Notes under the pieces: model-generated | Databases searched by the model: none | Seen by the model: the letters and a program-made list of their open reading frames with translations, nothing else | What the model was told of the DNA's origin: nothing | Part shown: positions 3,552 to 56,617 of the stretch, piece by piece | Position numbering within the stretch: position 1 is the stretch's first letter | How the letters are laid out: each line of letters starts with the position of its first letter | Made by a program: the position numbers and the translations under genes | Virus record (IMG/VR): IMGVR_UViG_3300010167_000010 | Location: 96,001 to 160,000 of that record | Origin: a virus | Taxonomy: Duplodnaviria > Caudoviricetes | DNA: 64,000 bases | Reading direction: 5' to 3' (one strand)

Positions 3552-4472
3552 TTAACTATTATCCATATAAGTTTTTATTTTCTGAACAGTATTTTTGTTA
3601 AACAAGCCCTCAGTTAAACAGAGCTCTTTAGCATGCGCATCAGATTCAAAAATTCTTTTTATATAACTTAATTGAAACTTATGTTTACTAGATATTTCTT
3701 TATCAAAATCAATTTCTTTTAAGATTTTATTTATATTAGATATTCTCGAGTCTATGCCTTTACTATGTTTTATTATAGAAAAAGTTTCTTTATATATTTC
3801 TATAAGAGGAGTTAAAAGATAAATTATACTCATAATAAATATTGCAGTAAAACAAGTTACAATATTAAAAGCTACCAATAAGATAAAACATAATGGGTAA
3901 AGATTTATAATATCTACAACAATATTCTTTTTAACGTTTCTTTCTAAAATATCAAATATAAAATTTATAGAACAAGATAAAACTGCTGTTACTATAAAAA
4001 ATATTAAAAATCTGGTAGTAAATAAAGATTGCAACCCTAAAACAAAAAGTTTAATATATTCTTCATAATAAATTTCTTCTACTCTGTATATAAATAGAGA
4101 AAAATCTGATATTCCAAATAATAAAAGAAATGCAAATATTAAAGAATATACGATATATATTAAATTTTTTATCTTATAAGAAATTCTAGCAATATGATAA
4201 CCAAGTAGTCTCCCTTTTATAGTTATAGATAAAAATAAGTTATAATAGAAAACTATAAAAAAAATCAATAAAGAAGAAACACTACTAACTGTGAAAAATC
4301 TAATTAGAAATATAATTAGAAATATATTAAAAATATAACTAAACACAATATAAGGAACACGCAAATCAGCACCATCTGTTAAAAATCTATTAGAGATACT
4401 GACTAATTGTATTCCGTTACTTACAACTATACTTATAAGTAAAAATATAACAAAAATTTGCTCTATAAACAT
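3552..4472 (-). CDS. multi-pass membrane protein
   Basis: About 6-7 hydrophobic segments followed by a soluble tail. Confidence 0.65.
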   Translation of the reverse strand: MFIEQIFVIFLLISIVVSNGIQLVSISNRFLTDGADLRVPYIVFSYIFNIFLIIFLIRFFTVSSVSSLLIFFIVFYYNLFLSITIKGRLLGYHIARISYKIKNLIYIVYSLIFAFLLLFGISDFSLFIYRVEEIYYEEYIKLFVLGLQSLFTTRFLIFFIVTAVLSCSINFIFDILERNVKKNIVVDIINLYPLCFILLVAFNIVTCFTAIFIMSIIYLLTPLIEIYKETFSIIKHSKGIDSRISNINKILKEIDFDKEISSKHKFQLSYIKRIFESDAHAKELCLTEGLFNKNTVQKIKTYMDNS

Positions 4473-5203
4473 CTAATATTCCTTTTATTTATTGTGGGTT
4501 TTTCCACACTATAACGACCCTTATCTATTACAATATTTTTTATTAAAAGAATTGTAAATAATAACTTACTTAAAAATATTATAAATAAATAAGTATCTAT
4601 AAGATTTCCTGATAAGAATGACACAAAAGATAAAACAAAATAAAATATAAACGAAAAGTATAAAATTTTTATAGAATTAGACAAAATTTTACTATTTCTT
4701 AATAAAGTTATTAAGAATAAAATTATATTTACTAGTGGAAATATAATAAATAAATTAAATAATGGATGATATTGGACAAATATATTTAAAAAAGACATTT
4801 CATGTAGATTAGTATTATATGAAGGAATCATTACGATTATTAAACACATTATAATTAAAACTATATAATTACTTATTATTGTAAAAAAGAAGAAAAATCT
4901 TTTATAGTAAGCATTTAAAAATAGCTTATAAAATTTTGAAAAGAATAATGACATATATGAAAAAGAAATTACAAATAAGTATATAATTATTATTTCATAA
5001 TGTAAAATATTGATATGATTACTTAACGGTTCATATAACAATAACATTAGATATACCATTAAGTATTTGACACAAGCTATTATTAGCCAATTAAACTGGA
5101 TAGATATGAATTTTTCTTTTACTATCAAGCGAAGAGAGTATACTATAATAAATATTTTAGCCAGTATTAAAACTAACAATATTATTATATTTAATGTAGT
5201 CAT
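4463..5203 (-). CDS. multi-pass membrane protein
   Basis: About 7 hydrophobic segments. Confidence 0.65.
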   Translation of the reverse strand: MTTLNIIILLVLILAKIFIIVYSLRLIVKEKFISIQFNWLIIACVKYLMVYLMLLLYEPLSNHINILHYEIIIIYLFVISFSYMSLFFSKFYKLFLNAYYKRFFFFFTIISNYIVLIIMCLIIVMIPSYNTNLHEMSFLNIFVQYHPLFNLFIIFPLVNIILFLITLLRNSKILSNSIKILYFSFIFYFVLSFVSFLSGNLIDTYLFIIFLSKLLFTILLIKNIVIDKGRYSVEKPTINKRNIRCL

Positions 5204-23237: not shown

Positions 23238-23371
23238 TGGTATTTGTAGTAATATTATTTAAGATGTCGATGTTAGCATTAGGTTGCGCATTAGCAATTT
23301 GGCTTACTTTGAGACTTATAAATTCTATAAGGAGTTTATAATATAAATTTATAGTTAATTTACTAATTATA

Positions 23372-23548
23372 AGGTAGTAATACCTCTTGGCACTGATTGA
23401 GAATTTGCTCTAGCCCGGGTATCCTGAAAGGATTGCTAATGGAGCTTATGAAGAACAGGTAGTTGAGTAAAAACTTACTGTGAGGGTAATCACCTATATC
23501 CTCGAGAAAAGATTAGGTGTTCGGCGGCTTTAAAAATTACTGCTGCCC
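23372..23548 (+). ncRNA. structured RNA of unknown family, immediately upstream of tRNA-Pro
   Basis: GC-enriched non-coding stretch: GNRA hairpin, GAAA hairpin, H-type pseudoknot, terminal hairpin. Confidence 0.6.
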
Positions 23549-23550
23549 AA

Positions 23551-23623
23551 CGGAAGGTTTGATAGCGGCTAATCGGCTTGGTTTGGGACCAAGATTTCGT
23601 GGGTTCGAGTCCCACCCTTCCGA
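23551..23623 (+). tRNA. tRNA-Pro(TGG), CCA not encoded
   Basis: Acceptor CGGAAGG/CCTTCCG, anticodon arm CTTGG-TTTGGGA-CCAAG, T arm GTGGG-TTCGAGT-CCCAC. Confidence 0.93.
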
Positions 23624-23814: not shown

Positions 23815-24201
23815 ATGTCTACAAGATCACTTATTAATGTCGAATGTAATGATGGAATTGTAAGATCTGTTTATTGTCATTTCGACGGTTCTGATCATTT
23901 ACCCACTTTACAACTTCATTATAATTCGCAAGAATTAGCTGAAGCTTTAGTAAATTTGGGAGATATGAGTTCTTTAGGACCATTTATGTCTTGTCCAGAA
24001 GGTCACTCATTTGAAAATCCAGTTGATGATTATTCAGTATTTTATCATCGAGATCGTGGTGAAGATTGGGATGATACTTGTCCAGCTGAATTTGATACTT
24101 TGGCAGAAGCAAGAAAACAAGATCGTGGACAGCAATATATTTATGAATGGAAAGAAGGCGCTTGGCGCGGATATAATGTTTATAGAAAAAGATATATGTA
24201 A
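23815..24201 (+). CDS. conserved phage hypothetical protein
   Basis: MSTRS...SVYCHFDG pattern common in large phages; AGGAG RBS. Confidence 0.75.
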   Translation: MSTRSLINVECNDGIVRSVYCHFDGSDHLPTLQLHYNSQELAEALVNLGDMSSLGPFMSCPEGHSFENPVDDYSVFYHRDRGEDWDDTCPAEFDTLAEARKQDRGQQYIYEWKEGAWRGYNVYRKRYM

Positions 24202-24215
24202 GGGAGGTGAATAGA

Positions 24216-24305
24216 TTGGTTTTGAGAAAAAGAGTAATATTTGTGATATTGATTTTAGTTGCTGCGTCATTTGCAGCAGTTGAGCTTTTTGTAAAAGTTC
24301 TATAA
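24216..24305 (+). CDS. 29-aa single-TM peptide
   Basis: GGGAGGTGA RBS, TTG start, MVLRKRVIFVILILVAASFAAVELFVKVL. Confidence 0.5.
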   Translation: MVLRKRVIFVILILVAASFAAVELFVKVL

Positions 24306-24310
24306 TAATT

Positions 24311-24383
24311 TGCCTGGTAGTGTAATGGTTTAGCACTACAGACTTTGAATCTGTCAGTGGAGGTTCGAATCCTCCCTGGGCAG
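24311..24383 (+). tRNA. tRNA-Gln(TTG), CCA not encoded
   Basis: Acceptor TGCCTGG/CTGGGCA, anticodon arm ACAGA-CTTTGAA-TCTGT, T arm GGAGG-TTCGAAT-CCTCC. Confidence 0.95.
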
Positions 24384-24402
24384 CTAATTTATGAGGTGAT
24401 AT

Positions 24403-56430: not shown

Positions 56431-56596
56431 ATAACCGAGGTGAACGGTTATAAATTATATTCATCGGTTCCTTAAAAAGGAACGGCGGTAGGAATATCCA
56501 AAACTGCCGCCAACTTTTTCTTTTTGCTACAAAAGAAGTAAACCTAAAATGTAGCTTACCTCCAATCCGACTCTCCCTTCGGGGAGAGTATTTTTT
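56431..56596 (+). ncRNA. structured small RNA of unknown family
   Basis: Own promoter motif, pseudoknot, three hairpins, UUCG terminator. Confidence 0.65.
56570..56596 (+). terminator. intrinsic terminator
   Basis: ACTCTCCC-TTCG-GGGAGAGT-ATTTTTT. Confidence 0.9.
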
Positions 56597-56617
56597 ACTA
56601 AATATTAAGAAGGATAT

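Follow-up and report, generated by a model that had tools for sequence, protein, structure and literature searches.

A structured RNA of about 180 nucleotides, located directly 5' of a tRNA-Pro(UGG) gene in a jumbo phage, is, judged by sequence comparison, a previously undescribed family within the loose kind of structured RNAs linked to phage tRNA genes. Six distinct members were identified, and the fold that they share is strongly supported by covariation. We give about an even chance to the reading that this would be a stable non-coding RNA (~180 nt), the first product of a promoter-RNA-tRNA-mRNA unit, released by RNase P or, in some relatives, by its own terminator.

Genomic location and gene context

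The DNA analysed here (the window, 64,000 nucleotides) comprises bases 96001-160000 of a virus record of 329,018 bp that carries direct terminal repeats and was judged complete. The G+C content of this 329-kb jumbo phage genome is 28.5%, and DNA identical to it is present in termite-gut metagenome runs, which points to a termite-gut origin for the window's phage. The genome contains 22 tRNA genes, 19 of them clustered at 25-42 kb. The RNA occupies positions 23372-23548 of the window, where G+C rises to 42% versus 23% in the preceding 130 bases, and it is single-copy when the whole phage genome is searched with a covariance model built from four sequences. The stretch 23372-23550 is free of open reading frames, with the sole exception of a 39-codon GTG frame that extends into the tRNA. 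The elements adjoining the RNA are the following.

23354-23369, + strand: promoter-type motif GTTAAT-TT-ACTAATTA, recognised by enrichment of the composite motif and ending 2 nt before the RNA
23551-23623, + strand: tRNA-Pro(UGG), the invariant 3' neighbour of the RNA, detected by ARAGORN and by Rfam RF00005 (52.9 bits); CCA is not encoded
24311-24384: tRNA-Gln(UUG), which like tRNA-Pro(UGG) lies apart from the 25-42 kb tRNA cluster

The RNA is followed on the same strand, with small gaps, by a row consisting of tRNA-Pro, a 59-codon ORF, a gene for a protein of 128 amino acids, a 32-codon hydrophobic ORF, tRNA-Gln and further genes, among them a radical SAM gene 1.5 kb downstream of the RNA. 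In the window, only 3 nt (CAA) separate the last helix of the RNA, P6, from the tRNA; no sigma-70-type promoter above chance was found in the RNA region and no terminator between the RNA and tRNA-Pro.

Two of the small genes in this row deserve a short description. The 128-aa protein (23815-24201) belongs to no Pfam family; its homologues, at least 168 in number, come from metagenomes, plasmids and Salmonella, and a few carry the source name "post-segregation killing protein PndC". The 32-codon hydrophobic ORF MNRLVLRKRVIFVILILVAASFAAVELFVKVL (24207-24305) stands directly before tRNA-Gln, is conserved in the related contig L026, and contains a terminator-like hairpin at 24254-24284.

Identification of the family

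No match was found within 23372-23550 among the 4227 models of Rfam 15, either at the gathering score or at E<=10 with permissive filters. This agrees with an earlier note, made from the letters of the window alone, in which the RNA was said to match no recognised riboswitch or ribozyme consensus.

Megablast and blastn searches of 50,697 phage records revealed no phage relative at the DNA level. Relatives were reached by anchoring on neighbour genes and by covariance models, built from the window sequence alone and then from four sequences. The radical SAM gene as anchor led to the IMG/VR contigs L002 and L003, and the 128-aa gene to contigs L026, L027 and L046 and to a near-identical copy, L024. 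A single-sequence search of IMG/VR with the 128-aa protein returned no match; a search with its alignment returned 9 loci, in which the RNA was found only in two already known. Contigs L026 and L027 carry an evident homologue of the RNA immediately 5' of tRNA-Pro(UGG), and the other three were matched by covariance model as follows.

L002, 3963-4138: E = 6e-19
L046, 38-200: E = 6e-7
L003, 4602-4769: E = 5e-6

Together with the window these contigs provide six distinct members, 180-240 nt in length, each composed of one rod domain and one pseudoknot and each located between a promoter-type motif and tRNA-Pro(UGG). All six are from related uncultured phages, and all are probably of termite-gut origin, the habitat being documented for the window only.

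The family is small. A scan of metagenome contigs with the W-clade motif detected the RNA of L026 in identical form on a further contig, L034, and otherwise only L026, L027 and chance matches; the same scan found nothing in viral contigs and two chance matches only in GTDB genomes. A looser pattern, TCCCGGGT...AAANTKACT, gave 120 chance matches, none with an adjacent tRNA-Pro. The RNA was also absent from 116 IMG/VR loci that share the tRNA-Pro anticodon arm, and a match at one of these, L083, was rejected (E = 0.76, on the strand opposite to the tRNA). A second copy suggested in the window at 56481-56604 (- strand) reached E = 0.001 with the single-sequence model, was absent with the four-sequence model genome-wide, and was rejected as two unrelated hairpins.

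Contigs that possess the 128-aa gene and no tRNA-Pro are also without the RNA, indicating that RNA and tRNA travel together. This constant link may reflect inheritance rather than function, since the members share gene order and the family is tiny. BLASTP detects no similarity between the small proteins encoded upstream in the window and in L026, though a resemblance is visible by eye.

Some of the neighbouring genes differ among the members. In L002 (4191-4263) and L046 (249-321) the RNA is followed by tRNA-Pro(UGG)-like genes that were missed by ARAGORN; their acceptor, D and anticodon arms are normal, and their T-loop reads GGCAGAG instead of UUCRANY. Genes of this build are also present in L165, L168/L170 and L175. 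Several IMG/VR phages that are unrelated share the T-arm core GGGGCAGAGCC in their tRNA-Pro genes, and the gene with the GGCAGAG T-loop looks like a distinct phage tRNA-Pro variant. Contig L002 alone contains, between the tRNA-Pro-like gene and the 128-aa gene, a Cys-rich ORF of 228 amino acids (4265-4951), which, from its zinc-ribbon-like CxxC pairs, we presume may be a mobile endonuclease.

The nested fold

A single secondary structure fits all six members. Its helices were first found by eye on the unaligned sequences and were checked sequence by sequence. The nested part of the structure, with two unpaired segments, is listed below in the coordinates of the window.

23372-23385, + strand: P1, the 5'-terminal 5-bp hairpin AGGTA-GTAA-TACCT with a GUAA tetraloop
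23386-23467, + strand: 5' rod-like domain, in which P2 and P3 enclose P4, with large internal loops
23386-23394 with 23458-23467, + strand: P2, a long-range helix; 6 of 9 pairs changed on both sides
23407-23412 with 23440-23445, + strand: P3, a long-range helix; 4 of 6 pairs changed on both sides
23414-23419, + strand: palindrome CCCGGG in the internal loop between P3 and P4
23419-23436, + strand: P4, a hairpin that includes ATCC-TGAAA-GGAT (23421-23433); 4 of 5 pairs of inner P4 changed on both sides
23468-23481, + strand: A-rich linker UAAAAACUUACUGU between the two domains, the best-conserved unpaired segment
23482-23503, + strand: P5, the hairpin GAGGGUA/UAUCCUC; 5 of 7 pairs changed on both sides among the six members
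23523-23547, + strand: P6, the 3'-terminal hairpin GGCGGC/GCUGCC, ending 3 nt before the tRNA

In the six-sequence alignment of P1-P6, 90.7% of the cells are standard pairs and 25 of the 40 pairs are changed on both sides. The first of these figures is inflated, since the sequences were aligned to the model structure; the margin over the controls is still large. Controls slid by 1-3 columns were paired in 38-46% of cells with 3-8 double-changed pairs, and none of 500 column shuffles reached the observed values. Covariation with homologues, which the earlier note had named as a check, thus supports the fold far above its controls.

These results bear directly on whether the structure might have arisen by chance in a non-functional spacer. 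Such an origin would be in keeping with the stability of single-sequence folds, which is not significant against shuffles in the window (z = -1.59) or in L003 (z = 0.18), so that the helices of the earlier note could not be judged from the window sequence alone. Against it stand the covariation, the enrichment in G+C and the occurrence of the RNA at the same place in six lineages with diverged flanks, and we regard a chance structure as barely credible.

All motif coordinates of the earlier note were correct. Its GNRA hairpin at 23372 is P1, its ATCC-tgaaa-GGAT hairpin lies within P4 and its GGCGG...CTGCC stem is P6, all three kept through compensatory changes. Its GAG-aatttg-CTC hairpin, by contrast, is unsupported in the relatives; the CTC belongs to P3, and P2 and P3 take the place of that hairpin. 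The closing helix of the minimum-free-energy fold, GGCACUGAUU/GAUUAGGUGUUC, was rejected likewise, as it is not conserved in the relatives.

The individual helices vary extensively in sequence. The pair at position 4 of P1 is U-A, G-C, C-G or A-U in different members. P6 shows compensatory changes between the window and L026, is retained as a hairpin of wholly different sequence in L027 and L003, and is replaced in L046, with a spacer between RNA and tRNA of 3-8 nt among the members. A run of U follows P6 in L027, L003 and L002 only, and none is found in the window or L026. All six members have the linker consensus UA(U)AAAAU-ACU. A relative's contig from metatranscriptome run X7 differs from the window at four positions (23399 G>A, 23406 T>C, 23408 C>T and 23410 C>T); the two C>T changes, both in P3, convert C-G to U-G pairs and are compatible with the fold.

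The pseudoknot

The loop of P5 pairs with a strand further downstream, and the two strands in the window are these.

23491-23496, + strand: 5' strand CACCUA, in the P5 loop
23514-23519, + strand: 3' strand UAGGUG, reached through the A-rich loop GAGAAAAGAU (GAAUUAAAGA in relatives)

Neither MAFFT nor the covariance model aligned the pseudoknot in register, and its pairs were compiled in a manual table with the P5 loops anchored on the conserved UC.

Window and L026: CACCUA:UAGGUG, with the core UCACC:GGUG(U/A) for window, L026 and L027
L027: UCACC:GGUGA
L002: UCGAC:GUCGA
L046: UCGGCUAA:UUAGCCGA, with the core UCGGC:GCCGA
L003: UCGCG:CGCGG

The core of the pseudoknot contains 24 standard pairs out of 25 across five lineages and four different helix sequences. 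Only 2 of the 120 possible permutations of partners reach this number, namely the true assignment and one equivalent swap. The partner strand lies 10-14 nt downstream of P5 in four of the six members. L003 possesses an alternative five-pair partner farther downstream and is therefore the least certain member with respect to the pseudoknot. Shuffle tests on single sequences were weak (p = 0.03-0.4), and the support comes from covariation instead. On the strength of these pairs, which covary in register, we take the H-type pseudoknot proposed in the earlier note (GAGGGTA/TATCCTC, with CACCTA:TAGGTG) to be real.

Several short sequences in this region and its surroundings were considered as marks of known RNA classes and were rejected. 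AUUAGGUG as a T-box sequence is part of the pseudoknot strand and is replaced by unrelated sequence in L002, L003 and L046; the T-box leader model (RF00230) has no match at E<=10, and the window has no terminator. Mimicry of an anti-Shine-Dalgarno sequence by AUCACCU was dismissed because this segment, too, is replaced in L002, L003 and L046. CUGAUUGAG, a segment of the window similar to the hammerhead CUGAUGAG box, is conserved in neither L026 nor L027. No tmRNA or tmRNA-like RNA was detected by ARAGORN or Rfam, and the short frames that end at a conserved UAA, examined as possible tmRNA tags, differ among the members and lie in covarying helices. The candidate partner proteins Ro60 (TROVE) and CsrA are both absent from the phage.

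The palindromic internal loop

The hexamer between P3 and P4 is CCCGGG in five members and CUCGAG in L026, a double change that keeps its self-complementarity. It represents a single event, with a chance of about 1 in 15 given two substitutions in the hexamer. Adjacent nucleotides of CCCGGG are unable to pair within one chain, which makes the hexamer a candidate for a cross-chain contact. In L002, L003 and L026 the CCC/CUC half could slip-pair with GGG of the 3' strand of P3 instead, and RNAcofold gave an equivocal answer, with the palindrome duplex in the dimer minimum-free-energy fold of the window and L046 only. The palindrome may thus be a symmetric intermolecular contact, a homodimer hypothesis that rests on one double change. 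[quoted passage not shown] A reading of CCCGGG as Pro codons, in the manner of a T-box, was ruled out by CUCGAG in L026.

The promoter motif and the 5' hairpin

The earlier note had placed two stacked promoter motifs before the RNA. Their positions are correct (AGTTAAT at 23353-23359 and ACTAATTA at 23362-23369); the two are halves of one composite motif, GTTAAT-N2-3-ACTAWWTA, rather than separate motifs. The composite occurs in 8 copies in the 329-kb genome versus 0.2 expected, an enrichment of about 40-fold, and is located upstream of all six members (window, L026, L027, L002, L046 and L003). Apart from that of the window, the copies are as follows, in genome coordinates.

30659, 36643, 44208, 154171, 305573 and 310664, + strand: GTTAAT-N2-3-ACTAWWTA
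134853, - strand: GTTAAT-N2-3-ACTAWWTA

Of the eight copies, three are located within the tRNA cluster or next to it. A clear hairpin is found within about 3 nt on the 3' side of at least 4 of the 8 copies, that of the window included, which suggests that transcripts from promoters of this class start with a 5' hairpin. P1 may be the generic 5' hairpin of the class.

This observation is the main ground for a further reading, in which the RNA would be a passive 5' stabiliser or processing spacer that protects the tRNA/mRNA precursor from decay dependent on the 5' end and has no function of its own. P1 alone would suffice for such a role, and the rod, the pseudoknot, the A-rich linkers and the palindrome have been kept by compensatory change in six lineages; the passive role is accordingly judged quite improbable.

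Transcription and release of the RNA

Transcription would start at or just before P1 and continue into tRNA-Pro and the downstream genes. The spacer of 3 nt leaves no room for a separate tRNA promoter and, as no terminator intervenes, tRNA-Pro must be transcribed through the RNA. The 5' ends of tRNAs are made by RNase P, so that the cut of the host enzyme at the 5' end of tRNA-Pro would free the RNA upstream, with P6 as its protective 3' hairpin. In L027, L003 and L002, some transcripts may also terminate at P6 and its U-run. The freed RNA, with hairpins at both ends, would accumulate and act as a free RNA, perhaps as a symmetric homodimer joined through the palindrome. Release by RNase P is what we infer from the anatomy of the locus, which combines a 3-nt spacer, no intervening promoter or terminator and a hairpin at either end. 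Since these terminal hairpins are kept without attenuation, the RNA resembles a stable product more than an expression platform. On this reading it would be of one kind with T4 RNAC/RNAD and GOLLD/ROOL.

In one termite-gut metatranscriptome, contigs of close relatives cover 23367-23443 at a depth of 7.4 and 23465-23520 at a depth of 27.6, and contigs of the 128-aa gene have depths of 2.4-4.1. The difference in depth is a weak hint that the RNA accumulates, as it comes from relatives' contigs only and DNA carry-over is possible. None of the RNA-library contigs covers the tRNA or bridges RNA and tRNA, and run X5 covers the 128-aa gene only.

An argument against the stable-RNA reading is the position of the RNA, which directly follows the promoter and heads a long gene row on one strand, as a cis-acting leader would too. 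A regulatory leader, the fold of which would sense a ligand, a protein or RNA polymerase and control the downstream genes, is the main rival, plausible though less probable than the stable RNA. It could operate by attenuating transcription at P6, by put/EAR-type processive antitermination over the operon, or by gating the access of RNase P to tRNA-Pro. P6 with its U-run resembles an intrinsic terminator in L027, L003 and L002. The window and L026 have neither U-run nor terminator after P6, but compensatory changes have occurred between their P1, P4 and P6 helices; the structure, P6 included, is thus selected where attenuation cannot operate. The conserved A-rich loops of the pseudoknot recall several small aptamers, which are likewise pseudoknots with A-rich loops, whereas no riboswitch or leader family in Rfam matches at E<=10 and the gene context suggests no ligand. 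With regard to gating, the RNase P site is 3 nt away from the end of P6, and cleavage there can be influenced by the structure of the leader. A switch-like alternative exists in L046, in which UUAGCCGA of the pseudoknot is also able to form a local helix with CGGCUA immediately 5' of the tRNA. In four of the six members, however, the pseudoknot strand does not overlap P6, and hence there is no conserved competing helix. A precedent is provided by engineered riboswitches in tRNA 5' leaders, which control processing by RNase P (PMC8925977).

More specific is the idea of a natural sensor or assembly that acts on the supply of tRNA-Pro, which we consider unlikely in either of its two versions. In one, the pseudoknot would compete with a local hairpin, as L046 allows, and the RNA would be a switch gating RNase P, doing in nature what engineered riboswitches do when they control tRNA processing. 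The other version has a homodimer, held by CCCGGG/CUCGAG, that would form a miniature "ornate" RNA, comparable in kind to the assemblies of GOLLD and ROOL on a smaller scale.

The earlier note had also suggested a tRNA-processing ribozyme, which by cleaving itself or the precursor would form the 5' end of tRNA-Pro without RNase P. A compact pseudoknotted RNA beside a phage tRNA invites this comparison, theta ribozymes being linked to phage tRNAs (PMC10879173). No model of a self-cleaving ribozyme (HDV-like/theta, hammerhead, twister, pistol or hatchet) matches at E<=10; the part proximal to the tRNA, P6 and the spacer, varies in sequence and length, with no nucleotide conserved at the junction; and the place assigned to theta ribozymes is the 3' trailer of tRNAs, whereas the RNA lies 5' of the tRNA. 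Moreover, self-cleavage would leave a 5'-OH on the tRNA. The suggestion is abandoned here as very improbable.

Comparison with known systems

Structured phage RNAs adjacent to tRNAs (T4 RNAC/RNAD, GOLLD and ROOL) have been known for decades and, to our knowledge, none has an assigned function. The present family is compact, with about 180 nt in two domains, and has a defined promoter and processing site, which makes it amenable to mutational, probing and structural study. Two of its features lend themselves to testing, the covarying pseudoknot and the palindromic loop with its possible role in dimerisation. Should the RNA control the maturation of tRNA-Pro, or assemble as the large ornate RNAs do, it would be a tractable model for all RNAs of the class; should it be no more than a stable by-product of tRNA processing, it would be just another orphan RNA motif of an uncultured phage lineage.

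H-type pseudoknots with an A-rich loop 3 are known from viral frameshift signals and from small riboswitch aptamers. The pseudoknot described here resembles these classical cases in that a hairpin loop pairs with a downstream strand across an A-rich connecting loop. It differs from them in lying outside a coding region and in being joined to a second, rod-like domain, with no known ligand or frameshift context.

RNAC and RNAD of phage T4 are matured together with tRNA precursors, and we know of no pseudoknot described in them. Also named species 1 and 2, they are small RNAs from the tRNA region with roles unknown (PMC3014915, PMC9697503). The present RNA is similarly a small phage RNA from a tRNA gene region, and differs in phage lineage and in fold. 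Homology was compared by blastn only, and no similarity to RNAC or RNAD was detected with 11-base words against the 50,697 phage records, taken to include T4-type genomes.

The HDV-like theta ribozymes of gut phages are linked to tRNAs and have been postulated to process tRNA 3' trailers (PMC10879173). They share with the present family the physical linkage of a small pseudoknotted RNA to a phage tRNA gene. The family differs from them in its location 5' of the tRNA, in matching no HDV-like model and in the junction nucleotides, which are not conserved.

Finally, GOLLD (RF01998) and ROOL (RF03087) are structured RNAs of phages and prophages, often located beside tRNAs and possibly co-transcribed with them (PMC5737381), and they assemble by symmetric kissing contacts (bioRxiv 10.1101/2024.12.08.627333). 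The models of GOLLD and ROOL do not match the RNA described here. They are 3-5 times larger (~580 and 800 nt) and have many multistem junctions, compared with 180-240 nt and two domains. The present RNA is like them a phage RNA adjacent to a tRNA, and its change from CCCGGG to CUCGAG, one double change only, follows the same logic as their covarying palindromes.
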